Below are positions 4,198 to 49,543 of a stretch of 64,000 bases of DNA, one piece after another (position 1 is the first letter of the stretch; every line of letters starts with the position of its first letter). The stretch comes from an uncultured Ignavibacteriaceae bacterium (GTDB lineage Bacteria; Zixibacteria; MSB-5A5; GN15; PGXB01), in the NCBI GenBank assembly GCA_964459465.1, contig CAYWLR010000001.1, forward strand, positions 35,866 to 99,865, read 5' to 3'. The notes under the pieces were generated by a model. It searched no databases. It saw only the letters and a program-made list of their open reading frames with translations, and was not told where the DNA came from. Both the position numbers and the translations under genes were made by a program.

Positions 4198-5619
4198 TTA
4201 TTGGGGACAGTCAAGCGCCGGGCCATTATCATAGATAAACGATATCATGGCCAGAATATCGAGCAGGTTCAAATCACCGCTGTTATTAACGTCGGCCGCC
4301 TCCGGTATCGCCGGCGATGGCCCCTGACCATAAATATCATCGATTAAAAATAATATATCGAGCAGATTGACATTGCCATCGCTGTTGGCGTCACCGCATA
4401 AAAAACCGCAGACCGGGGCGACCCCGTCGGGGACAATTTTAAAAACTTCGCCGTCGAACAGGTCGCATATGTACAGTTCCCCATGGGCGTCTTCACCGAA
4501 GGAAACAATGCCGCCGACGTCCAGGCCGCCGCCGGGAGCAAGTTCGGCACTGCGTTCGGCATACTCCGTTACGGTTATTCCGTCATATAGAAAAGTCCAG
4601 ATATTACCCGAACAGTAATCGGCAAAGAAATAGGTCCCCTGAAGGTCGGGGATGGCGCACCCGCGATAAACATAGCCGCCGGTCACGGAGCATCCCAGGC
4701 TATGGCTGTATTCAGTGACCGGAAATTGATAGGCCGACGGCGCAGAACAATCGGTAGTATTGTATTCGTGGTTGCCTTCATAGCAGCGCCAGCCGTAATT
4801 TATACCGCCCGGACCAGAGGCCGGTTCATAGTCAATTTCTTCCCAATCCCCCTGACCGACGTCTCCGATATACATGTCGCCGGTGGCTCGGTCGAAACTG
4901 TAACGCCAGGGATTGCGCAAGCCTTTGGCCCAGATTTCACCCAGAACCGAGGGTGAACCACTAAACGGGTTATCGGGCGGTATGGTATAGGGATTGCCGC
5001 CGTCAACGTCGATCCTTAGAATTTTGCCCAGCAGGGTGTTGTCGGACTGGGCGCGGTCGCCGGGGTCGCCGCCGGAGCCGCCATCGCCCAGACTGATATA
5101 CAAATAGCCATCGTTGGGCCCGAACGCCAGCATGCCGCCGTTATGGTTGGAAAAGGGCTGATCGACGAAAAGGATATTGAATTCGCTGGAGACGTCGGCG
5201 CTGTCCGGGTCGGATGAGACACGGAAGCGCGATACGCGGGTATCGCCGTTATTGTCCGTGTAGTTAACATAGAAATAGCCGTTGGATGAATATTGCGGGT
5301 GAAAAGCCAGCCCCAGAAGACCCTGCTCGTTGCCGATGGAACGAACTATCGCCGAAACATCAAGAAATGGCCGGGATAACACCGTCCCGCCTTTGAGAAT
5401 TTTAATGCGGCCGTCCTGTTCGACGATAAAAAGCCGCTCGGTATCGCCGGGGGCGGCGCAGACGAAAACCGGGCGGGTCAGACCGTCGGCCACGCGAATT
5501 GTCGTAAGAGGCGTGGCGTTGGGTGCGGCCGAAAGACAGGTCGCCAAAAGGACGACAAATACAAACATGAGAAAACCCGCCTTTGCCGCAGTATGGGCCC
5601 GATGGAATTTTTCAGCCAT
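4198..5619 (-). CDS. PQQ-dependent sugar dehydrogenase-like (SGDH beta-propeller) secreted protein with C-terminal dockerin-like module
   Basis: LLGLAFHP, NHNGGMLAFGP.DGYLYISLGDGGSGGDP and GLRNPWR motifs of soluble glucose/sorbosone dehydrogenases. N-terminal signal peptide and a C-terminal twin dockerin-like repeat. Confidence 0.85.
   Translation of the reverse strand: MAEKFHRAHTAAKAGFLMFVFVVLLATCLSAAPNATPLTTIRVADGLTRPVFVCAAPGDTERLFIVEQDGRIKILKGGTVLSRPFLDVSAIVRSIGNEQGLLGLAFHPQYSSNGYFYVNYTDNNGDTRVSRFRVSSDPDSADVSSEFNILFVDQPFSNHNGGMLAFGPNDGYLYISLGDGGSGGDPGDRAQSDNTLLGKILRIDVDGGNPYTIPPDNPFSGSPSVLGEIWAKGLRNPWRYSFDRATGDMYIGDVGQGDWEEIDYEPASGPGGINYGWRCYEGNHEYNTTDCSAPSAYQFPVTEYSHSLGCSVTGGYVYRGCAIPDLQGTYFFADYCSGNIWTFLYDGITVTEYAERSAELAPGGGLDVGGIVSFGEDAHGELYICDLFDGEVFKIVPDGVAPVCGFLCGDANSDGNVNLLDILFLIDDIYGQGPSPAIPEAADVNNSGDLNLLDILAMISFIYDNGPALDCPQ
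4201..4398 (-). other. Dockerin-like twin EF-hand module (C-terminal)
   Basis: CGDANSDGNVNLLDILFLIDDIYGQGPSPAIPEAADVNNSGDLNLLDILAMISFIYDNGPALDCPQ. Confidence 0.8.
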
Positions 5620-5721
5620 GTCAAATTCCGCCTGTGTTTAAAGGTGCACGGTTTGATTATAATGTGGACGTTAAATGTCCATTATATTGGTAATACGGAA
5701 AAGACCCGGGATTTTGGAAAT

Positions 5722-5753
5722 AAAAAAACCCGGGGCCCTCCGGGCTCCGGGTT
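5722..5753 (-). terminator. Intrinsic terminator after CDS 5774-7372 (minus strand)
   Basis: GC-rich hairpin ACCCGG...CCGGGT (5728-5753) followed on the minus strand by a 7-nt U-run (plus-strand A-run 5722-5728). Confidence 0.6.
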
Positions 5754-5773
5754 TAATTCGAATTTCAATTCGA

Positions 5774-7372
5774 TTATTTCAAAACCACCATTTTCTTTTT
5801 GGCGACATTGTCACCGGCGGCCAATCGATAAAAATATACCCCACTGGCCACCGTGCGCCCGTCACCGTCATCACCGTTCCAGTCGACACTGTGATAACCC
5901 GGTTGCATGGGCTGATCGAGCAGAGTGGTCACCTTCTGCCCCAGGATATTGAAAACATCAAGTCGTACATGAGCTTCAATGGGCAAATCGAACCTGATGG
6001 TCGTGGTCGGATTGAAAGGATTAGGATAATTCTGGTGCAGGGCGAAGCTTTTTGGCAATAGCTCGCCCAGCTGGCCGGTAAGGTAGGCCTCGGTTCCGAT
6101 GACGATTTGAGCGCTTTTTATTTCGTTTTTCAGTATAATTTCGCCGCCGTTAACCGGTGAAATATGGTTTTCATCGTCGAAAATCAGCCACGCCTGCATA
6201 CCGTCGGGAATCTGATCCAGACCGGCAATTTTCAGGACCCGGTTTTCGCCGCCTGAAAATATCAGATTCCAGGTCGCACCGTCGATAAAAGGCGCCCGGT
6301 AATCGGCGGTGAAGGCCGGTTTTTCATCCTTAACCCGAAGCGCCAGCATGGGCATGCCCGGCGCCGCCGGTGGCTTGAGCATATCGGTTTGATCAAATCC
6401 CGGTTGCGCGGCATGGCGCACTCCGATATAACCGTTATCCACCCCGGAACCATCCGTCAACGTCAGACTTATCGTCCAGTCATATTCCGAAGATGCGGCC
6501 AATATATCATTCTGCCTTTGCGGCGGGGCCTTGGTTACCGGAATATAGGGGAAGACCGGCTTTACGCCCGCTGTGGTAACATAGACAAAGAAGCCTTCCC
6601 AGGCCGGGATAACAGCGCTATGGTCCCAGGTTCCGTTATTATAATAATAGTGGTTTCCGCCCTGCACGACACCGCTCAAAGCGCCCTGAATCGTGCCGCC
6701 GGACTGGTAGAGTATTTGGCTGAACAAAATGTTAAAATCAAAAGGATTGGCCAGTTGATTCCAGCCAAGAGCCAACGTCAATTCCGGCGAATCCGAAATA
6801 TAATAATCGTGTCCGGCATGATTCGTATTGGGCGTTACCGCAAAGCCAGTGGCATCGATAGTCTTCGAGCCGCGCGCAATCAGCCAGTAGCCGATACCGG
6901 GGACAAATTCAGGAATTGTGCCGGATCCTCCGTATTCATAAGTGGCGTCATCGCCATTATCATAACGCCCAAACCGCCACTGTTTGATATTGTAGGCTCC
7001 GAGGTCATCGACCAGAACGGTATTGGCGTCGTTGCCGCCTATTACATGCACGGGAACTCCGATAATTTTATATGCGGCATCCGGCAGGGCAGTCGGTTTT
7101 TGAAAACTGGTTGCTTCGAGCCTGAAGGCGCTGGCAATGACGCCGCCCTTGCCGATGTAGCTTGTCGATGCCGACAATCCCATCGGCCCGCCGCCGATCG
7201 TTCCGACCACTTTGGAAGCCGCCGCTGTGCTGATGCCGCCGCCGCCAACATAATGCAGAGGCCAGACTTTGTAATCGTCGCTTAGCGGCGGTTGAGTCTG
7301 TGCGGAAGCCGAGGCAGTCAGCAGGCAGGCGAGCGCGGCCAATAAATATACACCGTATTTTATTGGTCTCAT
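5774..7372 (-). CDS. Secreted protein of unknown function with a T9SS type-A C-terminal sorting domain
   Basis: Start chosen at MRPIKYGVYLLAALACLLTASASAQ (signal peptide), 1 nt after the upstream stop. The C-terminus LHQNYPNPFNPTTTIRFDLP...VFNILGQKV...GVYFYRL... is the classic Por secretion tail pattern. Confidence 0.8.
   Translation of the reverse strand: MRPIKYGVYLLAALACLLTASASAQTQPPLSDDYKVWPLHYVGGGGISTAAASKVVGTIGGGPMGLSASTSYIGKGGVIASAFRLEATSFQKPTALPDAAYKIIGVPVHVIGGNDANTVLVDDLGAYNIKQWRFGRYDNGDDATYEYGGSGTIPEFVPGIGYWLIARGSKTIDATGFAVTPNTNHAGHDYYISDSPELTLALGWNQLANPFDFNILFSQILYQSGGTIQGALSGVVQGGNHYYYNNGTWDHSAVIPAWEGFFVYVTTAGVKPVFPYIPVTKAPPQRQNDILAASSEYDWTISLTLTDGSGVDNGYIGVRHAAQPGFDQTDMLKPPAAPGMPMLALRVKDEKPAFTADYRAPFIDGATWNLIFSGGENRVLKIAGLDQIPDGMQAWLIFDDENHISPVNGGEIILKNEIKSAQIVIGTEAYLTGQLGELLPKSFALHQNYPNPFNPTTTIRFDLPIEAHVRLDVFNILGQKVTTLLDQPMQPGYHSVDWNGDDGDGRTVASGVYFYRLAAGDNVAKKKMVVLK
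5777..6046 (-). other. T9SS C-terminal sorting domain (type A)
   Basis: NYPNPFNP-TTI-F-LP ... V-I-D-LG--V ... G-Y-Y-L pattern read directly from the translation. Confidence 0.8.
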
Positions 7373-7373
7373 A

Positions 7374-8495
7374 CTATTCCTCCTGCATATTCTGCTTGGC
7401 TTCAAGAAGCTCTCTTTGCGCCTTTTCAGCTTCAAGCTGGGCCTTAATTGCTTTTAATTCCAATTCTCTTAAATCGACCTCATAAGCTGTGATTGGTTGC
7501 TGGTTTGGGTTAGCCGGATCAAAGGGTATCTCAACCACGCGCGCACTTTGAAAATCATCGGGATTTATGTCAGGTTCAATTGTTGAGATGGTACCATAGC
7601 TTGATGGCAAATAAATAAGAACTAATTTGGGATAATAAACATAAGCGTTTCCACCGGTCCAGCCGCGATTTGCATTCAAGTAATATGTTTGTGTTCCGGC
7701 CGATGCCACCGAGAATATTCGTTGTGCAACCATGGATCCCCATTGATAGACACCACTGGCCAGCGTTATATCCGCTCCGCCGAATGCCGTAAAATGTTGG
7801 CTTCCAGGTGTCGTCGTGGCCAATGCTTCTATACCTAGAATAATATTACCGAAGGCATTGCCGGTCGCCAAACCTCCGATTGCACCATACGCAAAGCCCA
7901 TGGCCAAAACATATCCGGCGGCTGGGGCATTAATGGAAGCAGACAAAATATTGGTAACACCCGTATTGGCGACCGTCACTCCTGATGTAACTCTCGTTTG
8001 AACAAGGCCCGATTCGTCAAGCATCTTCGCGGCGGTTATTGTGGCATCGGCAATATCGGCCGCAACAATAGTGCCGTTAACAATTTTGGCCGAGGTAATG
8101 CTATTATCAGGTACCGTTGTGGCCGTATTGGCGTATTCCGATGAGTAGGCATAAGGCGCGGATGTAATCAGTTGCCGCGGGGCAAGGGTTTGACCGCCGA
8201 CGACCATTTCCATATATAATTTCGGGCCGTCAAAATAGGTTCTGTTCATACTTGTCAGTTCCGTCGTAAAAATACCGTTGGCATCGGGAGATACGTTAAC
8301 TGTCCACGTTTGAACCGGTGAACCACCCGACAAAGCTTCATAAACTCGAAATGTGACACTGGTGGTATTCACTATCGGGTCCCCGCCCGCCGTGGTCAAG
8401 CGACCCTGATAGACAAATGAATTCGGCGCCTGGGCCATTGCCGTTACGGCCAGCACCAGCATCAAAATCGACGTAATAACAATTCCTTTTTTCAT
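7374..8495 (-). CDS. Secreted fibre-like protein with C-terminal coiled coil
   Basis: Start at MKKGIVITSILMLVLAVTAMAQA, preceded by AAGGA. The N-terminus FVYQGRLTTAGGDPI..TFRVY resembles tail-fibre-like surface proteins. It also has repeated ITSAKIV.GTIVAADIADATITAAKM segments and a heptad-like tail LELKAIKAQLEAEKAQRELLEAKQ. Confidence 0.7.
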   Translation of the reverse strand: MKKGIVITSILMLVLAVTAMAQAPNSFVYQGRLTTAGGDPIVNTTSVTFRVYEALSGGSPVQTWTVNVSPDANGIFTTELTSMNRTYFDGPKLYMEMVVGGQTLAPRQLITSAPYAYSSEYANTATTVPDNSITSAKIVNGTIVAADIADATITAAKMLDESGLVQTRVTSGVTVANTGVTNILSASINAPAAGYVLAMGFAYGAIGGLATGNAFGNIILGIEALATTTPGSQHFTAFGGADITLASGVYQWGSMVAQRIFSVASAGTQTYYLNANRGWTGGNAYVYYPKLVLIYLPSSYGTISTIEPDINPDDFQSARVVEIPFDPANPNQQPITAYEVDLRELELKAIKAQLEAEKAQRELLEAKQNMQEE

Positions 8496-8543
8496 CTTAC
8501 ATATCCTTTTAATCAGGTTAATCCTCAAGTTTATCAATTCAGT

Positions 8544-9251
8544 TTACTTGCCGCTGGGGGGATCGGGAATGCCGGGCAAATCGGCTGTTCCACCGCCGTC
8601 ATCGCCGCCACCGCCGCCGAGAGCCACCGCCGCGACCGCAATCAAACCGACCCCTCCGGCAATAGCCCACCAGTTGGAATACCAGGCTTTCTTCTTCTTT
8701 TCTTCAGTCTTTTTTGGCGGAATAGTAGCTACGGCCGGCTTTTTTTCTTCCGGTTTGGGCTGTTCAACCACGACCGGTATCGGCTCGGTTGGAGCGGGTT
8801 CTTCGACCGTCGCTTCCTCGGCCGCTTCGCTGTCGACCCGTTCCTTGGCGCTTTCCATCAAATCCAGAAACTCCCCGGACTTGATATCCAGCTCGCCGCG
8901 CCATTCGCGATAGGCTTTGAAGGCCTTGACGAATTCTTCAGTCACCCTGTCGCGCTTTTCGGTGTCGTTTTTGAGCATGGCATAATACACTGAAGCCATC
9001 AGGACGTGCGCGTTGGCCTTGTCTTCGATACTTACGTCTGCCCTGGCCAGATAGGCGTTCAGTTCTTCTTCGGCGCATTTGTAGTTGAGCATCTTGAAGC
9101 TGGTGCGGGCATGCTCAACCGAAGGTTTATTCGGGTCGAAATCGCAGCCTCCGGACTGGGCAAAAACTAATGACGGCAGCATTGTCCATTGCAAAAAAGC
9201 CGTCAGAACGGTCACCGCGACTACCCGAAAAAGAAGGTTTTTTTGTTTCAT
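8544..9251 (-). CDS. Exported helical (TPR-like) protein with Pro/Glu/Lys-rich linker and C-terminal membrane anchor
   Basis: Signal peptide, helical domain, linker EPAPTEPIPVVVEQPKPEEKKPAVATIPPKKTEEKKKK, then TM WWAIAGGVGLIAVAAVALGG and a Gly/Asp tail. GGGAGG SD upstream. Confidence 0.7.
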   Translation of the reverse strand: MKQKNLLFRVVAVTVLTAFLQWTMLPSLVFAQSGGCDFDPNKPSVEHARTSFKMLNYKCAEEELNAYLARADVSIEDKANAHVLMASVYYAMLKNDTEKRDRVTEEFVKAFKAYREWRGELDIKSGEFLDLMESAKERVDSEAAEEATVEEPAPTEPIPVVVEQPKPEEKKPAVATIPPKKTEEKKKKAWYSNWWAIAGGVGLIAVAAVALGGGGGDDGGGTADLPGIPDPPSGK

Positions 9252-9287
9252 GCAACCTCCCTGGGTTATGAAGTTAGTTTGAGAAGT

Positions 9288-10961
9288 TTACTTTTCGGAC
9301 CAGAATATAATCAGGGGAACCGAGGTTCCTCCCTCTTTGGCTATTCTGGCAAAATCCATTTTACCCGATGCGCCCTTGATTACCAGATGCGGGCCGCCGC
9401 CGTAGGGGAAAGTCACGCAGGAGTCGATCTTGTGGGCGTTCGCCTTCGCGCCGGTCGGATAAAGGCTGACGCCAACCTCCCATTCGCCGGCGGCTCGTTT
9501 TAGGCCGAAGGCCGGGAAGCTGGTGAAATTGCGCGAGCGCCCGTTCAGCGAAAATTCCAGAGTTTTGCCGTCGGCCGAGGGGAACAGGGCCAGTTGAAAA
9601 TCAAGCAGGGCGGTTTCGGCAAAGGCATCATCGAGGTTTAAAGTCACTATATTTGTATCTTCGGTCAGATTAACGCGTTTACGATATATCGGGTAATCCC
9701 GATGAGTTACTTCGAAATCATGCTGTCCCCGGCTCGTGATGACATACTCGTTCTGGGGCTTAATCAAGCCATCGACTCTCAAGACCGCGTTTTCGCCGGG
9801 CGCTATCAGCGCCTTAAAGACCGGGCGCGGGGGAGGGGTCGGTTCGACGCGCGGCTTGGGTTCTTCCACTTTGGCGGCGACATCGACCGGTTTGACAGCC
9901 GGTTTGGGCGGAGTCGCCTCCTTTTTTATTTCGGCGGCGATGACGCTCGTGTCTGGGGCGGTTATATCGGATTTGGCCGGAGCAACAGCTTCTTTGGTAG
10001 TCGAGATTTCAGCGGGTCGATTGAATAATTCGATAATCTTATCTTTGGCAAAAAAGCCGACTACGCCTAGGACCGCAACCGCTATTACCGGAACCAGCCA
10101 TTTGGCTTTGGTCGGTTTGGCATAGACGGTGCGTAACTCCATCAGATCCTGGTGCAGAGCCTTGACCGAGGCATAACGCATTTGGGGGTCAGGATGGGTC
10201 GCTCTTTTAAGGATTTTAATCAGGTCGTTGGACAATCCCTCGACACTCATGCCGCCCCATTCCCGGATGCTGGGATTGGCCGGGTTACGATACGGCATGC
10301 TGTTGGTGACAAAATTAAATAAAGTTACTCCGAGTTCATAAACGTCGCTTAAGAACGGGTCATATTTGGCGTCACCGGTCTGGCGTTCGGGGGCGGCGAA
10401 TTGCGGGGTAAGCGCCTGGTATGCGGTGCGGGTAGCGGCTTCGCCCACTTCCTTGGCGATACCGAAGTCAATCAGGTAGATATGGCCGTTTTTATCGATA
10501 AGAATATTGCCCGGTTTAATATCGCGATGGGCAACACGCTGGCTGTGGGCGAATTCCAGCGCTCCGGTCAAATCGCGGGCCAGGCGCAAAAAATCGGCTT
10601 CACCCAGCGGCCCGGATTCCCGAAGCACCTGCGCCCCGTCTTTGCCGTCGATAAACGGCACTACCAGAGCCCCTTCTTCGGGCAAAAAATCAATAACGCG
10701 GCAGATATGCGGGTGGTCCAGAAGGCACAGGATTTTGGCTTCCTTGGCGAATTTATCGCGGGATTGGACGCGCTTGAAAAATTTTATGACCAGCCTTTGT
10801 TCCGGCAGATTGATATTGAAACCTTCGTAAACCTCGCCGAATCCGCCGCCACCGATATGCTTGGTGACCTTGTACTTGCCACCGATTTGCCAGCCGATAA
10901 TCCCCAGCGGGTCACGGTTGTTGTCGTTTAAATCGGATTGCTCAAACGTATCGTCGTTCAA
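9288..10961 (-). CDS. Hanks-type Ser/Thr protein kinase with one TM helix and an extracytoplasmic PEGA-like domain
   Basis: GGGGFGEVY..VIK, HRDIKPGNILID, DFGIAKE and APE motifs. TM helix WLVPVIAVAVLGVVGFF, a Pro-rich spacer and APGENAVLRVDG (PEGA-like). TTG start with GGAAAGG SD. Confidence 0.9.
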   Translation of the reverse strand: MNDDTFEQSDLNDNNRDPLGIIGWQIGGKYKVTKHIGGGGFGEVYEGFNINLPEQRLVIKFFKRVQSRDKFAKEAKILCLLDHPHICRVIDFLPEEGALVVPFIDGKDGAQVLRESGPLGEADFLRLARDLTGALEFAHSQRVAHRDIKPGNILIDKNGHIYLIDFGIAKEVGEAATRTAYQALTPQFAAPERQTGDAKYDPFLSDVYELGVTLFNFVTNSMPYRNPANPSIREWGGMSVEGLSNDLIKILKRATHPDPQMRYASVKALHQDLMELRTVYAKPTKAKWLVPVIAVAVLGVVGFFAKDKIIELFNRPAEISTTKEAVAPAKSDITAPDTSVIAAEIKKEATPPKPAVKPVDVAAKVEEPKPRVEPTPPPRPVFKALIAPGENAVLRVDGLIKPQNEYVITSRGQHDFEVTHRDYPIYRKRVNLTEDTNIVTLNLDDAFAETALLDFQLALFPSADGKTLEFSLNGRSRNFTSFPAFGLKRAAGEWEVGVSLYPTGAKANAHKIDSCVTFPYGGGPHLVIKGASGKMDFARIAKEGGTSVPLIIFWSEK

Positions 10962-11212: not shown

Positions 11213-12484
11213 CTAAAAAGTCATCTTCCGGCTGTCGAGCAATACCGTCGGTTCTTCGCCATACAATTCAAGAAAATATGTGCCCGGTGCTACGGCGGCC
11301 ACGACCGCCTGAATTTCAAAATAACACATGCAATAAACATACCGGTTGGAAACGTTGAATTCAAAAAAGCGCAGGGTGTCGTTGGATTGGCTGATAGCTA
11401 CCACCAGATCCGCCGCACAATTAAACCAGGCGTCATAGTGGGTCATGGTCAGAACACCGTTATCGTAAATATATTCGACATTCGCGGCAAGCTTGTCCGG
11501 GGTTTTCTCGAGACAGCCGCTGTCGTCAAAACTTTGCAACCAGCCTTCTCCTCCGACCGTAATCTCGCCGGAATAAATTTCCTCGCCATAGATATCGAGC
11601 ACCCGCAGTATATATGAGCCTTCCTCAAGACCATAAAGCGTCGACTTGAGATTGAAATAGCAAATACAATCGGCGGGCATACCGGTATCGGCTTCGGCGG
11701 CGATAATCAGACCATCCATTACCGTATAATCGACCACATAGGCCAGGCCGCAGTTGTAGAAGGCATTTATGTGATAAATGGTCAAATCATGACCGACCAC
11801 CTGAACAAAAACGGAATCATCGTCCGATGAATCTTTTGTCCAGGCGCAGTCCGATTGCTCTTCCGAATGTTGAGGAACCGTCCCGCCGACCACGATGGCC
11901 GTGTCAATCCCGACCGTCTGGCCCTGAAGCCCGATCAGAATAACGACATAAGTGCCCGGCATCATGTCATAGATGATCGACTCCAGGTTGAAATAACACA
12001 GGCAGTCGCATTCGGGAATAGTGTCAAGCTGCTTGACAATAATCGTGTCGTTGTTAATGCTGTTGGTGGTGGCATAACCCAGACAGCAGTCATAATAGGC
12101 GCTGTCGTGGTGAACGTGAATGTCGAAGCCGATCACTTCGACATACATGGTGTCGTCGGCGTAATCTTTTCCTTCAAGACACCCGCTGTGGTAGTTGTCG
12201 CACGGCAGGCCGCACCATAAATCGCCGCGCCCGTCATACAAATTCGCGATCAGCCTTAATATGTCGAGCAGGTTGATGTCGCCATCGTTGTTGACGTCGG
12301 CCATTTCCTCATTAATCAGCATGCCATTGGGAATATATATGTTTTCAATAATGGCCAGGATGTCCAGCAGGTTGACACCGCCGTCCCGGTTGGCATCGCC
12401 GCAAATGTAATTGGGTTGAGAGGAGTACGAGGTGAGGGGAAGGGCAATCAGAATTGCCGCCAAAAGAAAAAAGAACTTTTTCAT
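11213..12484 (-). CDS. Secreted protein: N-terminal dockerin-like module plus three tandem Cys-rich repeats (unknown family)
   Basis: Signal peptide, dockerin-like module at aa 28-91, then three repeats with an exact 111-aa period. Each repeat has H-x2-A-[YFW]-[YF]-[ND]-C and C-x-C-Y-F motifs. Confidence 0.8.
   Translation of the reverse strand: MKKFFFLLAAILIALPLTSYSSQPNYICGDANRDGGVNLLDILAIIENIYIPNGMLINEEMADVNNDGDINLLDILRLIANLYDGRGDLWCGLPCDNYHSGCLEGKDYADDTMYVEVIGFDIHVHHDSAYYDCCLGYATTNSINNDTIIVKQLDTIPECDCLCYFNLESIIYDMMPGTYVVILIGLQGQTVGIDTAIVVGGTVPQHSEEQSDCAWTKDSSDDDSVFVQVVGHDLTIYHINAFYNCGLAYVVDYTVMDGLIIAAEADTGMPADCICYFNLKSTLYGLEEGSYILRVLDIYGEEIYSGEITVGGEGWLQSFDDSGCLEKTPDKLAANVEYIYDNGVLTMTHYDAWFNCAADLVVAISQSNDTLRFFEFNVSNRYVYCMCYFEIQAVVAAVAPGTYFLELYGEEPTVLLDSRKMTF
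11216..12181 (-). repeat. Three in-frame tandem protein repeats (about 11849-12181, 11516-11848 and 11216-11515)
   Basis: The repeat-initial Cys residues C102, C213 and C324 are spaced exactly 111 aa apart. Conserved blocks: VEVIGFDIHVHHDSAYYDCC / VQVVGHDLTIYHINAFYNCG / NGVLTMTHYDAWFNCA, and CDCLCYFNL / CICYFNL / CMCYFEI. Confidence 0.75.
12212..12403 (-). other. Dockerin-like twin EF-hand module (N-terminal position)
   Basis: CGDANRDGGVNLLDILAIIENIYIPNGMLINEEMADVNNDGDINLLDILRLIANLYDGRGDLWC. Confidence 0.8.
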
Positions 12485-12721: not shown

Positions 12722-14752
12722 TTATGGACAAACGGGGTCGGGGCCGGGCGGGACACCATAAATGTTGTCAATCAGGTATAAAATATCCAGAAGATTGATA
12801 TCGCCGTCATTATTCATATCGCCCGCCTGCATCACCGGATACGGCTGCGGCCCGTCGCTGTACAAAAAGGCAATCAGGTACAGAATATCGATAAGATTCT
12901 TAAACCCGTCGCCATTGGCGTCGCCGCACATGTACTCACAGGCATCGCCGATACCGTCACCATCGCCGTCTTCCTGCAATGGATTATAATTGAACGGGCA
13001 GTTATCGTCGATGTCGAGTATCCCGTCGTCATCGTCATCATCGTCACAAACGTCGCCCAGCAGGTCGCCATCGTTGTCGGCTTGGTTGGGGTTATAGTCG
13101 TTCGGGCAGTTATCGCAGGCGTCGCCGATCCCGTCGCCGTCAACATCAGCCTGTGACGGATTGGCCAGTCCGGGGCAATTGTCCACGTCGTTGCAGATAC
13201 CGTCGCCGTCGGGGTCGTTTTCGGGATCATTGGGGCACAGATCACAGACATTGCCGATGCCGTCACCGTCGCTGTCGAGCTGATCGACGTTGGCATCGTT
13301 CGGGCAATTATCACAGACGTTGCCGACACCGTCACCGTCGGCGTCAGCCTGATCGGCATTAGGCATATCGGGGCAGTTGTCACAGGCATCGGACAGCCCG
13401 TCTCCGTCACTGTCGGCCGGCTCCAGATATTCGAGCGCGATTTCGTTTTCGGTCGTCCCGTCGACCTGATAGGCCGCTTTTTGGCCGCCGTTGGCGATGG
13501 CAGAATTGCGGTACTCGGAAAGTACGGATTCATGGAATTGCGACACCTGGATTGCTTCCGACCAGGTAACACCGGCGTTGCAGGTATAGGCTGCATACAG
13601 GGCGTCGCCTTTCGTAAACGTGCAGACATATTCCGCTCCGCCGACATGGGCGAGCCGGGGGTGGCATTCGGCTTCAGATGTGGCGGCGACAATCGAGAAA
13701 CCCTCAAAATCGGTGAAGGCCGGATTAGTGGTGTACCAACAGATAATATCGGTGTCGGTCGGATCCGATGCATTATACGCCGAGCCAACCACCAATATGG
13801 TGCTGTCGTAGGCGGCGATATCCGGCTCGACTATGTTCATATCGGGGTCGGTGAAGGCCTTGACGAAATACACGCCGTCTTCGGTCCAGTCCCCGAAATT
13901 ATGATTTAAAGCAAACAGCTCCCATTGATCGGTGGCATCATTGTAGCGGTCATAGACCGAAAGCGCCCATCCGGCGACACGATCGATTGTGGCGGCGGTC
14001 GTGGCACAACCCTCATAGTCTTTATACCAGCTTATATAGGTATAGCCGGTGCTGTTGATTTGATAGAATATTATCGGAATATCATCATAAACCGACGGCG
14101 GCGCATTACGGCTGATGACCGCCGAAATAAAACCCCAGTTCCAGGATTGCTGGCCGTCATCGGAAGCGATGTCGGTCATTTTCATATTATAAAATCCGGA
14201 TTCCGTCCAGACGGCATAACTTCCACTCCACGTCGTGGGCGTGGTCGGGTCGGGGAAACGAAGCAGAACAAAGGTCCCGCCGCCGCCCCATGACAGCGGG
14301 GGCAGGAAAGTCCCGTTCATATAAGACCCATAGCCGCGCCAGTCAACGGACGGGTATTTGGCGCCGGCCAGATCGTGATAACAGCACGTTGACCAGTTGG
14401 CGCCGTTATCGGTCGAATAATGCCAGAATACATAGCCGGGATAAACCCCGTCAGTATATTCGTAGCCAAAAATAACAGTGTCGTTGAAGGCGTCGCCCAG
14501 GGCGGGATGGTATCTGCCGGGAGCAGATGGCTTTTTATTCTCCCATGACGGGAAAAATTCCTGTGGCATGTCGATCAGGGGAGAAGGCGATTGCAATCGC
14601 TCTTCAACCAGTGGCGGCTTGGAAGAATGGCTTTCAAAATTATAACTTTTGGCATCCGGGATTTCGCGATCAATTAAAGTTAAATCGTCGGCCATGATGT
14701 TAATCGATAAAAGCAACAGACCGGCAAGCAAAATAACGGTATGGCGGGTCAT
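12722..14752 (-). CDS. Secreted BNR/Asp-box-containing protein with thrombospondin type-3 repeats and C-terminal dockerin-like module
   Basis: Signal peptide, Asp-box STDNGANW, about seven D-x-D-G-D-G-x-x-D-x-C-D-N-C-P repeats and a C-terminal twin dockerin-like repeat. Confidence 0.85.
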   Translation of the reverse strand: MTRHTVILLAGLLLLSINIMADDLTLIDREIPDAKSYNFESHSSKPPLVEERLQSPSPLIDMPQEFFPSWENKKPSAPGRYHPALGDAFNDTVIFGYEYTDGVYPGYVFWHYSTDNGANWSTCCYHDLAGAKYPSVDWRGYGSYMNGTFLPPLSWGGGGTFVLLRFPDPTTPTTWSGSYAVWTESGFYNMKMTDIASDDGQQSWNWGFISAVISRNAPPSVYDDIPIIFYQINSTGYTYISWYKDYEGCATTAATIDRVAGWALSVYDRYNDATDQWELFALNHNFGDWTEDGVYFVKAFTDPDMNIVEPDIAAYDSTILVVGSAYNASDPTDTDIICWYTTNPAFTDFEGFSIVAATSEAECHPRLAHVGGAEYVCTFTKGDALYAAYTCNAGVTWSEAIQVSQFHESVLSEYRNSAIANGGQKAAYQVDGTTENEIALEYLEPADSDGDGLSDACDNCPDMPNADQADADGDGVGNVCDNCPNDANVDQLDSDGDGIGNVCDLCPNDPENDPDGDGICNDVDNCPGLANPSQADVDGDGIGDACDNCPNDYNPNQADNDGDLLGDVCDDDDDDDGILDIDDNCPFNYNPLQEDGDGDGIGDACEYMCGDANGDGFKNLIDILYLIAFLYSDGPQPYPVMQAGDMNNDGDINLLDILYLIDNIYGVPPGPDPVCP
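12725..12928 (-). other. Dockerin-like twin EF-hand module (C-terminal)
   Basis: CGDANGDGFKNLIDILYLIAFLYSDGPQPYPVMQAGDMNNDGDINLLDILYLIDNIYGVPPGPDPVCP. Confidence 0.8.
12945..13410 (-). repeat. Coding tandem repeats: about 7 thrombospondin type-3-like Ca-binding repeats
   Basis: DSDGDGLSDACDNCP / DADGDGVGNVCDNCP / DSDGDGIGNVCDLCP / DPDGDGICNDVDNCP / DVDGDGIGDACDNCP / DNDGDLLGDVCD..DNCP / DGDGDGIGDACE. Confidence 0.8.
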
Positions 14753-15177: not shown

Positions 15178-15226
15178 TTCCCGTCGACGCGAACCGAAAA
15201 CGAAATTTGAATGAAAGTTGATTGCC

Positions 15227-21402: not shown

Positions 21403-22032
21403 CTAAGTTCTGACAATTCCCATTATCTTGTCGATTAGCCCGAGCACGTCGAGAAGGTCAAAGCGATTATCATGGTTATAATCGCCACCCGGACGAATCG
21501 GAAGCGCCGAAGAATTAGTATTGTAAATATTTGTTATCAGGAATACGACGTCGAGCATATTGACCCGGCCGTCGCCGTTGGCATCGCCGGACCCTTCGCC
21601 CCGAAGATAAACCCAGCCGTTCACCCAGATTTCGCATTTACCGGGCAATACGCAATGGATATGGTAACGATGCTGGGTACTGTCGTACACGAGTCCGTAG
21701 CCTCTGATAAAGTCTCGCCGGTCGATTTCAAGCTTCATAACGGGGCCGATAAAACCTTCCATTTCGGCAATGATTTCATAAGACAGCGGTTCCATTATTG
21801 TATTGACCCGCATGCTGGCGGGTTCAATATCCTCGACACTATATGGGGCAATATTCCCGAAATATATGGTATTGGTCGGATCGCCGAACATCCAGGCATC
21901 CATGACAAATGTCGGGTCCGGCTGCATGATGGCCAGTGGCTGTCCGAATGTCGCCGGGACAACAAAAAGGAACACTAAAAAGAATGTGATTAGCAGCCTT
22001 TGAATATTATTGGTGTTTCCGGTCATAGCCAC
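21403..22032 (-). CDS. Small secreted protein with C-terminal dockerin-like module (no Cys bracket)
   Basis: Signal peptide (LLITFFLVFLFVVPATFGQ), a ~140-aa domain of unknown function, then GDANGDGRVNMLDVVFLITNIY...GDYNHDNRFDLLDVLGLIDKIMG. Confidence 0.75.
   Translation of the reverse strand: MAMTGNTNNIQRLLITFFLVFLFVVPATFGQPLAIMQPDPTFVMDAWMFGDPTNTIYFGNIAPYSVEDIEPASMRVNTIMEPLSYEIIAEMEGFIGPVMKLEIDRRDFIRGYGLVYDSTQHRYHIHCVLPGKCEIWVNGWVYLRGEGSGDANGDGRVNMLDVVFLITNIYNTNSSALPIRPGGDYNHDNRFDLLDVLGLIDKIMGIVRT
21406..21588 (-). other. Dockerin-like twin EF-hand module (variant, lacks flanking cysteines)
   Basis: GDANGDGRVNMLDVVFLITNIYNTNSSALPIRPGGDYNHDNRFDLLDVLGLIDKIMGIVRT. Confidence 0.65.
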
Positions 22033-31772: not shown

Positions 31773-31784
31773 ATGATTTTATGC

Positions 31785-31813
31785 CAATATAAAGGGAATA
31801 AGTGAAAAGTCAA
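31785..31813 (-). promoter_or_regulatory. Possible sigma70-type promoter TTGACT-N17-TATATT (minus strand) for the two-component operon
   Basis: Plus-strand agtcaa at 31808-31813 and aatata at 31785-31790. Confidence 0.35.
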
Positions 31814-31879
31814 GAATACCTGTATGGATGACAAGGCGGAGAATAAGCAATTTGATTCTCCGCCCGAATGACCGATAAT

Positions 31880-45316: not shown

Positions 45317-47956
45317 CTATCGCAGTGTCCCACAGGAGCCCTGCCAGCTCGTGCATTCGCACAGTGACGGACCGTCTTCGTATAAATCGGCAATAAGATA
45401 AAGAATATCCAACAGGTTGACCGTACAATCACAATTGGCGTCGCCGGAACAAACGGGGTACGGTTTGGGATCCGGACCACTCTCATAAATATCCGCGATT
45501 AAGTAAAGAATATCCAGCAGGTTAATTGGGGAATTGCCGTTGGCATTGCCCGGAATACAATCACATACGGGAGGATTATCTTCATCGAAAAAGTCCAAAA
45601 TGCGCGCCATAATCGAATCGCGCTTGTCGTAGCCACCAAAATCATTGGAAATATCCTCGTACCCCCAGGCAAAAAAGACGACCTTGTAATCGCCCGCGTA
45701 TGAAACCGCCGAAGTCGGGCCGCCTTCATACTTGAACATAGCCTGCCCGCCATTAAACGGATTAATGGAACTGCCCTTCATGTAATCCTGATGGGCATAA
45801 CTGGTATAGCGCACACTCAAACCCTCGGCGATTGACCCCGGCAGACCCTCATGCACCAGTCCGAAATAATAGCCTCCGTAGGTGGCGTGCAAGTAATCAT
45901 TGAGGAAAGAGGGGTCTTCGACGTTGAGTTCCGAAGCAATCATTTGGCCCGTAAGAAACAACTTGCCGCCGCCGTCTAGATATGCCTTCATGGCGGCAAT
46001 ATCGCCCGCCTGCAAAAGATTCGACGAAGTATCGCCGGTAAACCAGATGACAACTTCATAGGCGCTCAACTCACCTGCCGTAGGCGCACCCTGCGACAAC
46101 TGGGTCCAGGTTCTTGACGGAACACCTGCATTATAGAGGTCGGCATAGAAGATTTCTTCGAAGTTATCGCCACGATCATCATCGACGATTAAAAATCGGG
46201 GCATGCCGACTATATGCTCGAATGAATACGTCTGCTCAAATATGCCGCCGTTGGCGGTTATCTCAACAAAAAAGGTGTCAAAGCGGGCATCGGCCGGGTT
46301 GGGAATGGTGAATGTAATAGGTTCGCCAAGGTTATTGGTTTTAGCCCCGTTACCAGGAATGCTTGCTTTATATACCGATTGATTTCCGAAAGTAATTTCC
46401 GGGTTGGTTGTAGTCATGTTTATTGTGGCGTTAGTGGCGGCCAGCCAGGCGTTTTCAAGGAAGAAATAGAATTCAACGGTCTCACCCGGGTCGAAATTAC
46501 CATCGGCGTTGGCGTCGTTGAAAACAGACGAATCCAAGACCAGATTGGGTCGCGACCAGGTTACATCCAGATTGGCCGTCATCAGGGAGTCCGAATTGGA
46601 AATATTCCAGACGGATACCTGGGTTATAGCTCCGGAATAGCTGCGGCTGTTGGGAACCGTGAGATCGTCAAAAGAGCGAACATTGCTGCTGCCGGGATAA
46701 GGGTCGCCGGCGTCACTTGAGCCCGCACCCCATTCCAGGTCGAAATCGCCGTCGGCTTGCTCCAATGCGACATGATAATGGTTGGGGTCATAATTGCCCC
46801 ATAGGGATTCATCTACGTGGTAAATCAATAGCCCTTCGCCATACAAGGCCAGATCGAAACCGACTTTCTGACGATTTTCCACAAGGAAATACTGATACCC
46901 GGAATAAGAACCTCCGGCCCAGAGTTTGTATATAACCGGTTCCGATTGAACCTGCGGGAATTCGACGCCCGTCATATTGCCTAATACCGGAGTGGCCGAT
47001 GCGAATCCCAGAAATACCCGGCTCCATGCGTCCAAATGCGAAGGTCTCCGCGACCCTCCGTTATAACTGCCGCCAGCCATCAAAGACCAGCGACCCAGGC
47101 CGTCGGAAGTCGACGGCGAGCCGTCTATATCATAAAGGTCGGGAAGACCCAATACATGGCCGTATTCATGGCAAAAAACCCCGATGGGCGAAATTGTGGC
47201 CGAGGATGCGGATTCTTCCGGTTCCATGGAATAAGCATTCACCCGAACGCCATCGACCCATACGTCGCTGGGCAGGTTCCATTGATGCGAATGTATTTCA
47301 TTGACGTTGCCGGATTCTTCATAACCGCTTCCGGCATGGACAACAAACAAACCGTCAACATAGCCATCGGATCCGCCAATATTATCGAAAATGGAAAAAT
47401 CCACGGTGGCGTCGGCGGCCAGGACGGCATCCCGGGTCAGCCCTTGGGCGTTTTGCGGATATGAACCAAAACCCTTCTGGCCGTTGACATAATAGGCATA
47501 AGTTTGGGGCATGCGAAACCAGCCATAAACCACACCGCTAATGAAGAAGTTGCCGTAAGAATTTTCCAGATAAAATTCGGTCATGGAACCGGTGGGGTTA
47601 AGCCCCTGGGAAAACAAGACCGAATCGAACTGCGACGGAGTGGCTGCTACCGCGCCGCCGGTATATGGATTATCAGAGAAATCCACCAGTAATACCAGAA
47701 CATGGACCGTATCGACAACGCCATTATCACCCAAAGCCCGGATTTGATTGGCGCGCGTCTGCGCCGGGTTGCTTATGCCCCGGGCACGGTCAAGTATATC
47801 CCGGGCGACGTACTCGTCCCATTTGCCCTCGGCAATGAGAGTGGCCTTGACGTCCGGATGCAGACTATGACCAAAAATCGGAGCGCTTGATAAAAGAATT
47901 AATAACATGCAAAAGATTGAAAACTTACTGATCACTTTTGAATTCATGGATGCCAT
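45317..47956 (-). CDS. Secreted M6-family (immune inhibitor A-like) metalloprotease with Cys-rich dockerin-like C-terminus
   Basis: Signal peptide, zinc motif FCHEYGHVLGLPDLYD, large downstream beta domains and a Cys-rich twin NLLDILYLIAD repeat tail. Confidence 0.85.
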   Translation of the reverse strand: MASMNSKVISKFSIFCMLLILLSSAPIFGHSLHPDVKATLIAEGKWDEYVARDILDRARGISNPAQTRANQIRALGDNGVVDTVHVLVLLVDFSDNPYTGGAVAATPSQFDSVLFSQGLNPTGSMTEFYLENSYGNFFISGVVYGWFRMPQTYAYYVNGQKGFGSYPQNAQGLTRDAVLAADATVDFSIFDNIGGSDGYVDGLFVVHAGSGYEESGNVNEIHSHQWNLPSDVWVDGVRVNAYSMEPEESASSATISPIGVFCHEYGHVLGLPDLYDIDGSPSTSDGLGRWSLMAGGSYNGGSRRPSHLDAWSRVFLGFASATPVLGNMTGVEFPQVQSEPVIYKLWAGGSYSGYQYFLVENRQKVGFDLALYGEGLLIYHVDESLWGNYDPNHYHVALEQADGDFDLEWGAGSSDAGDPYPGSSNVRSFDDLTVPNSRSYSGAITQVSVWNISNSDSLMTANLDVTWSRPNLVLDSSVFNDANADGNFDPGETVEFYFFLENAWLAATNATINMTTTNPEITFGNQSVYKASIPGNGAKTNNLGEPITFTIPNPADARFDTFFVEITANGGIFEQTYSFEHIVGMPRFLIVDDDRGDNFEEIFYADLYNAGVPSRTWTQLSQGAPTAGELSAYEVVIWFTGDTSSNLLQAGDIAAMKAYLDGGGKLFLTGQMIASELNVEDPSFLNDYLHATYGGYYFGLVHEGLPGSIAEGLSVRYTSYAHQDYMKGSSINPFNGGQAMFKYEGGPTSAVSYAGDYKVVFFAWGYEDISNDFGGYDKRDSIMARILDFFDEDNPPVCDCIPGNANGNSPINLLDILYLIADIYESGPDPKPYPVCSGDANCDCTVNLLDILYLIADLYEDGPSLCECTSWQGSCGTLR
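45320..45565 (-). other. Dockerin-like module, cysteine-rich variant
   Basis: CDCIPGNANGNSPINLLDILYLIADIYESGPDPKPYPVCSGDANCDCTVNLLDILYLIADLYEDGPSLCECTSWQGSCGTLR. Confidence 0.7.
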
Positions 47957-48102: not shown

Positions 48103-48150
48103 TTAATCATTGTTGGTCAACATCGTCCAAAACCGTGTCTATTTGCAGTA

Positions 48151-48178
48151 TTGACATTCCGGTCATAAGGTATATATT
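48151..48178 (+). promoter_or_regulatory. Possible sigma70-type promoter TTGACA-N16-TATATT for the FG-GAP gene
   Basis: ttgaca at 48151-48156 and tatatt at 48173-48178. It is divergent from the M6 promoter. Confidence 0.35.
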
Positions 48179-48235
48179 GACTATACCGGTTTACTTGCCG
48201 CCGCTATAATTCGTTTGGCAATAACGGGATATATA

Positions 48236-49543
48236 ATGAAACCTGCGCTATTTACATTATTTATCGGTTTATGGGTGACTTTTTCCACTTCTCTCGCCCA
48301 GGATAGCATTTTTTCTGAGCCCAATTTCCATGGCGCCGGATCCTTCCCACGCGATATTGTATCAAAAGATTTCAACAACGATGGACTTCCGGATATCGCC
48401 GTTGTCAATTCCGGAGATAATGAAATTATGGTGTTATTGAATACCGGGAATGGCTCGTTCCTTGTTTCAGATATCTGTTCTGCCGGCACATACCCGGTTT
48501 CGATCTACGCCGGATTACTCAACGATGATACCTATATCGATCTGGCCTGCGCCAATAATAATAGCAATGACGTTTCAGTATTCTGGGGTTATGGCGATGG
48601 GCAATTTGGTAATGCTGTTAGTTATGGTGCGGGGGGAATGCCACGATCTCTCTGTGCGGCCGATTTCGACCGCGATGGCCATATCGACTTGGCCTCGGCC
48701 AATACCCAGTCTAATGACGTTTCGATTTTCCATAACCAGGGAGGCGGCGTCTTTTATCCAGCCATAGCTCATTCCGTCGGCGGCAGTCCCACCTCCGTGG
48801 TGGCGGCCAATCTTGACCGGACAAGAGGCGAAGACCTTATCCTGGCCAATTATAACCCCGGCATGATTTCGGTGATGTTTAATCACGGCGACGCTTTTTT
48901 TGATCCGCCATTGAATCACGCCGCGGGGACGGGGCCATATGCCCTCGCAGCGGGATATATAGACGGTAATAATACCATCGACTTGGCTATTGCCAACTAT
49001 GACGGTAATTCGGTTTCGATAATACTCAATAACGGCGACAGCACATTTGCTGCGGCTGTCGACTATGAAGTGGGGCAGTGGCCGGCCGATATCTGTCTTC
49101 TGGATATCGACTTCGACGGCAATATCGATGTCGTGACAGCCAACAGCCTTTCGGACGATATTACCGTGCTTTTAAATCAGGGCGACGGGACATTTATCTT
49201 TGCTGCTACTTATCCCGCCGGAGATTGCCCGGTTGCGATATGTACCGGCGATTTCGACGGTAATCGCGATATTGACCTGGTAGTGGCCAATTTCTGGGAT
49301 AATAACTTCGCGATTTTCTTTAATCTTACCAATGGCAATTTTATTTGCGGTGACTGCAATGACGACGAGAATGTGAATCTTCTCGATATCCTGTATCTGA
49401 TCGATAATATCTATGGCGATGGTCCGGAACCGACACCGCCGGAAGCAGGAGATGTCAACTCTGACTATAACTTAAACCTTTTGGATATATTATATCTTAT
49501 AACCTCGATCTATGGCGATGGGGCAGATCCCGTGTGCCCATAA
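48236..49543 (+). CDS. Secreted seven-repeat FG-GAP/VCBS beta-propeller protein with C-terminal dockerin-like module
   Basis: Start at MKPALFTLFIGLWVTFSTSLAQ. Seven repeats of the D-[FI]-[DN]-x-D-G-x-x-D-[IL]-x-x-A-N...[VI]-x-[VI]-[LF]-x-N-x-G-[DN]-G-x-F type, then a dockerin-like tail. Confidence 0.85.
   Translation: MKPALFTLFIGLWVTFSTSLAQDSIFSEPNFHGAGSFPRDIVSKDFNNDGLPDIAVVNSGDNEIMVLLNTGNGSFLVSDICSAGTYPVSIYAGLLNDDTYIDLACANNNSNDVSVFWGYGDGQFGNAVSYGAGGMPRSLCAADFDRDGHIDLASANTQSNDVSIFHNQGGGVFYPAIAHSVGGSPTSVVAANLDRTRGEDLILANYNPGMISVMFNHGDAFFDPPLNHAAGTGPYALAAGYIDGNNTIDLAIANYDGNSVSIILNNGDSTFAAAVDYEVGQWPADICLLDIDFDGNIDVVTANSLSDDITVLLNQGDGTFIFAATYPAGDCPVAICTGDFDGNRDIDLVVANFWDNNFAIFFNLTNGNFICGDCNDDENVNLLDILYLIDNIYGDGPEPTPPEAGDVNSDYNLNLLDILYLITSIYGDGADPVCP
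49346..49540 (+). other. Dockerin-like twin EF-hand module (C-terminal)
   Basis: CGDCNDDENVNLLDILYLIDNIYGDGPEPTPPEAGDVNSDYNLNLLDILYLITSIYGDGADPVCP. Confidence 0.8.

Follow-up and report, generated by a model that had tools for sequence, protein, structure and literature searches.

A family of cysteine-bracketed dockerins on peptidases and adhesin-like repeat proteins of Zixibacteria

That cohesins and dockerins also occur outside cellulosomes is well established (Peer et al. 2009, cited in PMC9012536 and PMC8542988). For “Candidatus Stygibacter” (Cloacimonadota), a cellulosome-like system has been inferred in which dockerin-tagged S8 and C25 peptidases are joined by a cohesin scaffoldin bearing a C-terminal domain of the type IX secretion system (T9SS) (PMC8542988), and dockerin proteases are found in true cellulosomes, such as the S8 double-dockerin protein Clo1313_0689 of Clostridium thermocellum and a cysteine peptidase of Ruminococcus flavefaciens (PMC12484212). 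Here, we analyze a 64-kb stretch of DNA (contig CAYWLR010000001.1; hereafter the window, to which all coordinates refer) from an uncultured bacterium of the GTDB lineage Zixibacteria. The window encodes nine proteins (D1 to D9, in order of position) sharing a module of about 65 amino acids, which an earlier note, made from the sequence alone, had called dockerin-like. The nine modules are genuine type-I-like dockerins, each with two predicted calcium-binding loop-helix segments; the tag occurs across Zixibacteria, on a cargo consisting mainly of peptidases and adhesin-like repeats; and its receptor is probably an ordinary cohesin on a T9SS-sorted protein, not a novel receptor.

The modules share with clostridial type I dockerins (PF00404; PDB accession numbers 1OHZ, 2VN6, and 4FL4) a duplicated 12-residue calcium loop plus helix, a three-helix fold, internal two-fold symmetry, a usual C-terminal position, and a clasp running from the residues before a conserved glycine to the tail. 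They differ in that the clasp adds a conserved cysteine pair (a putative disulfide) to the aromatic residue at position -3 and the terminal proline, in that linker and tail are proline rich, and in that Leu-Leu or Leu-Ile occupies the putative recognition positions. Unlike in clostridial cellulosomes, the host is a diderm of the Fibrobacterota-Chlorobiota-Bacteroidota (FCB) group, and the cargo consists of peptidases and adhesin-like repeats instead of glycoside hydrolases. “Ca. Stygibacter” is likewise an uncultured FCB-group diderm with C-terminal dockerins on signal-peptide-bearing peptidases and a T9SS-tailed cohesin protein, but it has one scaffoldin of 3,755 amino acids with many tandem cohesins and carbohydrate-binding modules and also tags GH18 and GH57 glycoside hydrolases (PMC8542988), whereas in Zixibacteria we find one or two cohesins per protein and no carbohydrate-binding module, glycoside hydrolases are missing from the top cargo families, and the dockerins are cysteine bracketed. 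The non-cellulosomal systems of archaea (anaerobic methanotrophic archaea and Archaeoglobus) are similar in having many dockerin and cohesin proteins, both modules in one protein, and no large scaffoldin, but they rely on S-layer or membrane anchoring where Zixibacteria have a T9SS tail, and they carry other cargo (PMC9012536). Cellulosomal proteases, too, are peptidases held on cell-bound cohesins via dockerins (PMC12484212). They are, however, minor accessories of a carbohydrate-degrading complex, whereas in Zixibacteria peptidases form a major share of the enzymatic cargo. A functional analogue is the T9SS display of Bacteroidota, in which C10, M6, and S8 peptidases and the Porphyromonas-type peptidylarginine deiminase carry T9SS tails and stand on the surface of an FCB-group diderm; there, a covalent beta-sandwich tail is read by the secretion machine, whereas for Zixibacteria we propose noncovalent docking of a helical calcium module on a T9SS-delivered receptor.

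Most of what the earlier note considered unusual therefore has precedents, because non-cellulosomal dockerins, tagged peptidases, and a T9SS-anchored scaffoldin have all been published, and its emphasis on a cargo without glycoside hydrolases was overstated (PMC8542988, PMC9012536, and PMC12484212). The system is cellulosome-like and yet no cellulosome, because carbohydrate-active cargo is absent from the nine window proteins, glycoside hydrolase families are absent both from these nine and from the 25 most frequent of the 49 families that 75 tagged proteins of relatives contain, and the sampled DNA has no many-cohesin scaffoldin. We regard it as a protease-rich relative of the cellulosome, a modest variant that is unlikely to greatly surprise a specialist.

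The identity of the modules is established by three kinds of evidence. Seven of the nine pass the gathering cutoff of Pfam Dockerin_1 (22.9 bits) with scores of 25.2 to 48.2 bits; the two that fall under it (D8, 17.2 bits; D4, no match) both score above 90 bits with a profile of our own, and their homologues carry typical dockerin modules. Searched against PDB, the module profile matched 15 sequences, every one a dockerin-bearing chain. An AlphaFold model of the D6 module (from the protein at 22199 to 25252), built with 51 homologues, has a mean predicted local distance difference test score (pLDDT) of 94.9 and places helices at residues 22 to 33, 44 to 47, and 57 to 68, the three-helix dockerin fold; its top 27 Foldseek matches in PDB are all dockerins (template modeling score up to 0.81; root mean square deviation of about 2 to 2.6 Å), the top matches were mostly solved in complex with cohesins, and calmodulin receives a probability of 0.01. 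The dockerin-like call thus stands: because Pfam, the profile search of PDB, and the modeled fold all give dockerins, the modules both match dockerin profiles and adopt, in the model, the paired-loop fold. None of the nine matches the T9SS C-terminal sorting domain (PF18962/TIGR04183), and the modeled fold is helical, with no beta-sandwich.

Translation of the nine intervals confirms exactly nine copies, at the positions reported earlier, and a profile built from these modules recovered precisely the nine and nothing further from a six-frame translation of the window, with domain scores of 81 to 106 bits (E values of 1e-24 to 1e-32) that are high by construction, because the profile comes from the same nine modules. 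The 12-residue pattern D-x-N-x-D-G-x-x-N-x-x-D fits 17 of the 18 loops, and as many agree with the calcium-loop test D/N-x-N/D-x-D/N-x-x-x-N/D-x-x-D, as expected of a duplicated F-hand; the degenerate loop is the second one of the protein at 18960 to 21209. Within each module, the two loop-helix segments are identical at 10 to 16 of 22 positions, and both helices present a strongly conserved, internally symmetric N-L-L-D-I-L surface. Since DNA identity between the copies is only 44 to 66% and the longest exact word in common is 15 nucleotides, they are not recent duplicates. That the tag is old and maintained, as had been proposed, is supported by orthologues of eight of the nine proteins, which keep the dockerin at identities from 97% down to the range of 44 to 60%. 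Judged by eye, all nine proteins open like a Sec signal peptide, a basic residue leading into a hydrophobic stretch.

According to the earlier note, cysteines bracket the module in seven proteins. A CGD motif does precede loop 1 in seven, but the second cysteine lies 1 to 2 residues from the C terminus in six of them; in the seventh (11213 to 12484), the module is N terminal, right behind the signal peptide, and both cysteines are kept. The module of the protein at 45317 to 47956 is a cysteine-rich variant with nine cysteines, and that of the protein at 21403 to 22032 has none. Slutzki et al. described an “intramolecular clasp” of dockerins, in which the C-terminal tail meets positions -1 to -3, counted from the conserved glycine ahead of loop 1; most often an aromatic residue stacks on a proline, and mutation of the clasp reduces stability and cohesin binding (PMC3821032), and a Tyr5-Pro66 stack was confirmed by nuclear magnetic resonance in a C. 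thermocellum dockerin (PMC4728124). By sequence statistics, the cysteine bracket occupies the clasp positions defined in these papers. The consensus of 136 Zixibacteria modules is [Y/F]-[V/I/L]-C-G-D ... C-P, 118 of them having cysteine at -1 and 105 having an aromatic at -3; the tail cysteine is followed by proline in 79 of 117 modules, the two cysteines are spaced 63 to 68 residues apart, and 113 modules lack any further cysteine. Cysteine counts also covary: the number in the tail equals the cysteine at -1 plus that in loop 2 in 186 of 214 modules, the classes (position -1, loop 2, tail) being (1,0,1) in 139, (1,1,2) in 20, (0,1,1) in 14, and (0,0,0) in 13 (Fisher tests, P values of 2e-11 and 1e-17, uncorrected for relatedness). 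Because the pair sits at known clasp positions and the counts covary, the ends of the module appear to be tied by a disulfide, which would be a covalent version of the dockerin clasp. The D6 model contains an isolated beta-bridge between position 3 of loop 2 and the residue ahead of the tail cysteine, which fits a tail packed on loop 2, where a second, variant disulfide would form. The paper defining the clasp (PMC3821032) does not mention cysteine or disulfide, and a natural disulfide clasp does not appear to be described in the open-access papers that combine dockerin, clasp, and disulfide, one of which mentions disulfide in connection with a reducing gel.

Two other cysteine arrangements recur. 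A nine-cysteine subtype (CDCxPGxANxx ... xCSGDANCDCxVN ... CxC...W...CG), found at 45320 to 45565 (minus strand) and in P0036, P0045, P0049, and P0096, always sits on an M6 peptidase orthologue (six genomes) and scores under the Pfam dockerin cutoff; its nine cysteines could form as many as four disulfides or bind a metal cluster. In a third subtype, a cysteine at position 4 of loop 2 (DANCDG) accompanies the ending ..PCCP (P0052, P0056, P0059, P0071, P0092, and others), which implies a putative second disulfide from loop 2 to the tail; a related form has no N-terminal cysteine and a single cysteine at the end. As P0092, with its ..PCCP tail, comes from a metagenome-assembled genome (MAG) of Thorarchaeota, the cysteine-bracketed subfamily is not confined to bacteria.

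The D6 protein is present unchanged on 15 to 16 public contigs, including a 1.92-Mb contig of MAG GCA_030153525.1 and JGI contigs of 406 and 551 kb. Named homologues are entitled [quoted passage not shown] and automatic annotation thus already recognizes the domain. A genome scan with a four-sequence module alignment, covering one genome per species, returned 254 relatives; the best 80 of these fall in seven genomes, of which six are Zixibacteria or Zixibacteria-like by orthologue identity and one is a Planctomycetota MAG. MAG CALAMC01 represents the same or nearly the same species as the window, because most compared proteins are 93 to 97% identical (one short protein, 85%). Two of the six Zixibacteria or Zixibacteria-like genomes, MAGs labeled “uncultured Ignavibacteriaceae” (CAZMWI01 and CAZVNK01; L012, L014, L016, and others), have orthologues of window proteins at 46 to 86% identity with the same dockerin tags; these MAGs appear to be Zixibacteria, or to contain Zixibacteria contigs, and may be mislabeled.

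A census of the window plus 79 loci gave 159 distinct modules, about 85% of which have both cysteines and 93% of which lie at the extreme C terminus, most commonly ending in LCP, VCP, ICP, QCP, or NCP. Modules that are N terminal (D2 orthologues, five genomes) or internal (L084, L079, and L087) keep the cysteine pair and the motifs. Cargo was read from genome loci; the module matches in the protein database were short proteins and fragments only. Among 75 tagged proteins of relatives, 71 match Dockerin_1, and 17 are peptidases. The domains represented are PKD (12), FG-GAP (10), TSP3 (9), peptidase C10 (8), G8 (5), S8, C1, GSDH, and InhA-MAM (3 each), M14 and Porphyromonas-type peptidylarginine deiminase (2 each), and M4 (1). 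Many C10 (streptopain-like) and C1 (papain-like, with a lectin-like domain) peptidases of relatives have the architecture peptidase-PKD-[130-amino-acid domain]-dockerin (L082:2947-5154, L078:8057-10195, L056:6395-8605, L034:7964-10207, and about 16 more).

In agreement with the earlier note, no cohesin is recognized in the window, either by Pfam (E value of ≤0.01 on the 30 other open reading frames [ORFs]) or by our own cohesin profile (ORFs of ≥60 amino acids). The proteins at 18960 to 21209 and 11213 to 12484, which that note had suggested as receptor candidates, do not match this profile, and self-BLAST reveals no internal repeats in either. The former was also rejected as a scaffoldin, having no cohesin by Pfam, by our profile, or by fold (top 50 Foldseek matches) and consisting of tandem Ig-like/ASH modules. 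A single window protein, at 5774 to 7435 beside D1, has a T9SS sorting tail; as a receptor it was likewise rejected, with no cohesin by Pfam or our profile. Through the common tail, its relatives include proteins that join Pfam Cohesin and Por_Secre_tail, and one cluster of such proteins has a member named Zixibacteria.

The cohesin locus consists of a conserved gene cluster encoding a 406-amino-acid protein whose Cys-bracketed dockerin scores 78.6 bits with our own profile, an 882-amino-acid protein with a T9SS tail and a cohesin-like domain recognized by our profile only, a 659-amino-acid protein with Big_9, Cohesin (30.6 bits; Pfam cutoff, 24.1 bits), and a T9SS tail, an 853-amino-acid protein with Cohesin (33.4 bits), Big_9, and a T9SS tail, and a 3,596-amino-acid Big_9/cadherin-like protein. 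Instead of S-layer homology or sortase signals, these three cohesin or cohesin-like proteins carry Por_Secre_tail (27.4 to 38.4 bits), which would predict their location at the cell surface. A cohesin profile (A7) combining the locus cohesins with cohesins that lie at the N terminus of dockerin proteins in three genomes matched 19 PDB sequences, all of them cohesins (best E value, 4e-5). Samples JGI 3300038673 and JGI 3300023207 contain both the exact 853-amino-acid protein and the D6 protein; the former is also present in Logan runs SRR29900436/37/42, the latter in SRR29900439/40/44/45. The tetranucleotide correlation between locus and window is 0.92; thirds of the window correlate with one another at 0.94 to 0.97, and another organism reaches 0.76. 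Co-occurrence and composition together make it probable that the locus belongs to the same genome as the window. CALAMC01 encodes a T9SS-tailed protein with a cohesin-like domain (by our profile only, with no Pfam cohesin match) and a protein with a cohesin-like domain and a dockerin (Pfam Cohesin, 16.3 bits, subthreshold).

In the T9SS-tailed cohesin proteins (L007:4835-12562), a second dockerin-like segment without a cysteine bracket lies between cohesin and tail, e.g., GDINLNGIAYEIGDAIYLTNFLI...SDVNRDGLTGTVADLVYLILKIV, and reaches 13.6 bits with Pfam Dockerin_1 in one of them. By analogy with type I/type II pairs, this hints at a two-tier assembly.

On this evidence, we think it reasonably likely that Cys-clasped dockerins on Sec-exported peptidases and adhesins dock on T9SS-tailed cohesin proteins, giving a protease-rich, cell-associated complex. 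The carriers of the tag (S1, M14, and M6 peptidases in the window; C10, C1, S8, and M4 peptidases in relatives; adhesin-like repeat proteins) would first be exported through Sec; their dockerins would then undergo oxidative, calcium-dependent folding and, once folded, would bind cohesins encoded elsewhere in the genome, on T9SS-tailed proteins and perhaps also on some dockerin-bearing proteins. Because they end in a T9SS sorting domain, the cohesin proteins are expected on the cell surface, and the outcome would be a cell-associated “proteolysome” built on cellulosome logic. Any pairing of a given cohesin with a given dockerin is putative. The earlier note had left a choice between docking onto an unknown surface receptor and a tag for sorting or quality control; docking and display are now better supported, with an ordinary cohesin as the likely receptor, and the sorting or quality-control tag is disfavored.

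Several points weigh against docking on T9SS-tailed cohesins. The window itself has no cohesin, and no contig is shown to hold both the window and the cohesin locus, which overlap in samples, not in contigs, so that assignment to one genome rests on co-occurrence and composition. No multicohesin scaffoldin was found: in roughly 1.5 Mb of Zixibacteria DNA (a partial sampling) and among the tail-sharing proteins, no protein has more than two cohesins. The tagged proteins have Sec signals, called by eye only, and no T9SS tail, which leaves their crossing of the outer membrane unexplained. For the clasp, the covariation P values take no account of shared ancestry, and whole-module cysteine parity is not clean (147 even versus 67 odd), probably because cysteines of neighboring domains were counted. 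As to export, tagged proteins might bind cohesin-T9SS carriers in the periplasm and cross the type IX translocon as folded complexes, a piggyback route to which we give little credence; if true, dozens of proteases and adhesins would depend on the one secretion signal borne by a few carriers.

The lack of a cohesin in the window, together with the excess of modules (159) over confident cohesins (about 9) in the sampled DNA, would also be explained if the dockerins were orphans that do not bind these cohesins, acting as calcium- and disulfide-stabilized end caps or binding another ligand (a surface glycan, the S-layer, or a partner organism), with the tagged proteins free exoenzymes or attached by another route. 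Dockerins without partners are reportedly recurrent in non-cellulosomal genomes. We nonetheless consider orphan dockerins unlikely: the same samples contain true cohesins, CALAMC01 encodes cohesin-like domains, one locus sets a Cys-bracketed dockerin protein beside two cohesin proteins, and the symmetric N-L-L-D-I-L helix surface, repeated in both segments of each module, suits a maintained protein-binding face better than a mere stabilizer. The predominantly C-terminal position, with x-C-P before the stop codon as the commonest ending, and a cargo (C10, M6, S8, and peptidylarginine deiminase) drawn from families with T9SS tails in Bacteroidota could instead suggest a secretion or sorting signal, read by an export or attachment machine in the manner of the T9SS C-terminal domain. 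Such a signal is very unlikely, because N-terminal and internal copies retain both cysteines and all motifs, because the modeled fold is that of a helical dockerin and not the T9SS beta-sandwich, and because the modules do not match Por_Secre_tail, while canonical T9SS tails occur separately, on another window protein and, in P0216 and P0223, together with a dockerin in one protein.

It is also quite improbable that the system is a self-assembling network without a scaffold, in which peptidase-PKD-cohesin-like-dockerin proteins bind head to tail and the window proteins join the chains. The idea draws on the conserved domain of about 130 amino acids that directly precedes the dockerin in at least 20 proteins from six genomes and that was picked up as a cohesin by an iterated profile: in L064 (a partial protein) it scores 20.1 bits with Pfam Cohesin (E value of 8e-4, subthreshold), and hhalign against true cohesins gives 60% probability (E value of 8e-5). 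Against solved cohesins in PDB, however, the best E value is 0.14 (not significant), and Pfam Cohesin is absent from most copies. As these independent checks are weak, we regard the domain as only weakly cohesin-like and treat its recruitment as possible profile drift; none of the nine window proteins carries it. Docking on T9SS-tailed cohesin proteins remains our preferred reading.

Exported peptidase genes have been attributed to Zixibacteria before (PMC6365825). No open-access paper mentions both Zixibacteria and dockerin, and the Zixibacteria-wide extent of the system therefore seems unreported. Also apparently undescribed are the putative disulfide clasp ending in C-P and a common cargo in which peptidases are prominent and glycoside hydrolases seem to be lacking. 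Zixibacteria are widespread in anoxic sediments, and a surface complex of S1, M14, M6, C10, C1, and S8 peptidases would provide a mechanism for protein turnover there; if docking on T9SS-tailed cohesins holds, cellulosome logic would extend to proteins, in a diderm with type IX secretion. If real, a natural disulfide clasp would offer a small, very stable docking module for designer enzyme complexes. The rule [FY]-[VIL]-C-G-D ... C-P at the C terminus serves to spot the subfamily in metagenomes.

The cargo assignments made earlier for the nine proteins hold up against Pfam and NCBIfam: GSDH, TSP3, Trypsin_2, M14 with InhA-MAM, M6, and FG-GAP are all recovered, three proteins have no enzymatic domain, and only BNR stays below threshold. 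Eight of the genes lie on the minus strand and the ninth (D9) on the plus strand. D1 (4198 to 5619) combines a signal peptide, a glucose/sorbosone dehydrogenase-like propeller (Pfam GSDH, 147 bits), and a C-terminal Cys-bracketed dockerin (4201 to 4398, ending ..DCPQ; Dockerin_1, 39.8 bits; own profile, 98.5 bits); dockerin-bearing orthologues occur in CALAMC01 (97% identity) and in OY969724 and CAZMWI01 (72%). In D2 (11213 to 12484), the signal peptide is followed by the N-terminal Cys-bracketed dockerin (12212 to 12403, residues 28 to 91; Dockerin_1, 43.9 bits at residues 29 to 82), which matches only solved dockerins in PDB, an arrangement also present in orthologues of four other genomes. 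The body of D2 (11213 to 12211, minus strand) has three Cys-rich repeats of about 100 amino acids, with the pattern ..C..D.MYV.V.G.D..V.H..A.Y.C., for which we found no Pfam, NCBIfam, or PDB match; by eye, a similar Cys-rich segment lies behind internal dockerins of Zixibacteria (L084:9902-10648 and L079:13687-17172). D3 (12722 to 14752) carries a signal peptide, a BNR-like region (17.7 bits, below cutoff), six thrombospondin type 3 repeats (TSP_3, 87 bits in 6 stretches), and a C-terminal dockerin (12725 to 12928, ending ..VCP; 31.7 bits). Residues 571 to 664 of D3 (TSP3 plus dockerin) match NCBIfam NF045500, “Omp28-related selenoprotein,” at 128 bits (cutoff, 200), a family that apparently ends in the same TSP3-dockerin arrangement.

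D4 (18960 to 21209) has a signal peptide, about five tandem Ig-like/ASH-type beta-sandwich modules, and a C-terminal dockerin (18963 to 19166, ending ..ACG) that scores 91.8 bits with our own profile; the protein has no Pfam match. Its AlphaFold model (pLDDT, 69) places the beta modules at residues ~145 to 675 and best matches hydin-like ciliary proteins, cadherins, and titin in Foldseek. D5 (21403 to 22032) is a small protein with a signal peptide, a domain of about 110 amino acids, and a dockerin without a cysteine bracket (21406 to 21588; class (0,0,0); Dockerin_1, 25.2 bits; own profile, 81 bits). D6 joins a signal peptide, a trypsin-like S1 peptidase (Trypsin_2, 36.7 bits), a long beta-rich region, and a C-terminal dockerin (22202 to 22408, ending ..QCP; 48.2 bits), and D7 (25381 to 27615) joins a signal peptide, an M14 carboxypeptidase (Peptidase_M14, 230 bits), an InhA-like MAM domain (77 bits), and a C-terminal dockerin (25384 to 25593, ending ..ICEG; 35.4 bits). 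D8 (45317 to 47956), with orthologues in six genomes, consists of a signal peptide, an M6 (immune inhibitor A-like) metallopeptidase (Peptidase_M6, 95 bits; TIGR03296, 190 bits), and the Cys-rich dockerin variant (CDC..CSGDANCDC..CEC..C; 45320 to 45565), which scores 92 bits with our own profile. D9 (48215 to 49543) has a signal peptide, an FG-GAP beta-propeller (FG-GAP_3, 119 bits), and a C-terminal dockerin (49346 to 49540, ending ..VCP; 33.8 bits); its orthologue in CALAMC01 is 93% identical. The real start of D9 is probably the ATG at 48236, seven codons further downstream, and this would account for the lack of any match to the longer form in an exact-sequence look-up.

Among the remaining genes, the region at 28097 to 35083 (minus strand), which adjoins the six-gene dockerin cluster, encodes a response regulator dependent on sigma-54, a histidine kinase whose sensor domain is FG-GAP, and a 1,067-amino-acid tricorn-like S41 protease with a signal-like N terminus; together, they may form a unit that regulates the proteolytic genes. 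The cluster is interrupted on the opposite strand (15218 to 18818, plus) by two fused ATP-binding cassette exporter genes, each with ABC_membrane and ABC_tran, in the same arrangement as on other public contigs of the organism. A same-strand string at 5774 to 10961 (minus) comprises the T9SS-tailed protein of 553 amino acids, which is conserved in Zixibacteria at 40 to 63% identity, two secreted or membrane proteins without a Pfam match (one with a terminal coiled coil, the other with a membrane anchor and a spacer rich in Lys, Glu, and Pro), and a Ser/Thr protein kinase. Finally, a 558-amino-acid protein at 53924 to 55600 (plus strand) has a weak, partial match to GlpX-type fructose-1,6-bisphosphatase (36.8 bits, residues 197 to 401) and is far longer than the usual GlpX.

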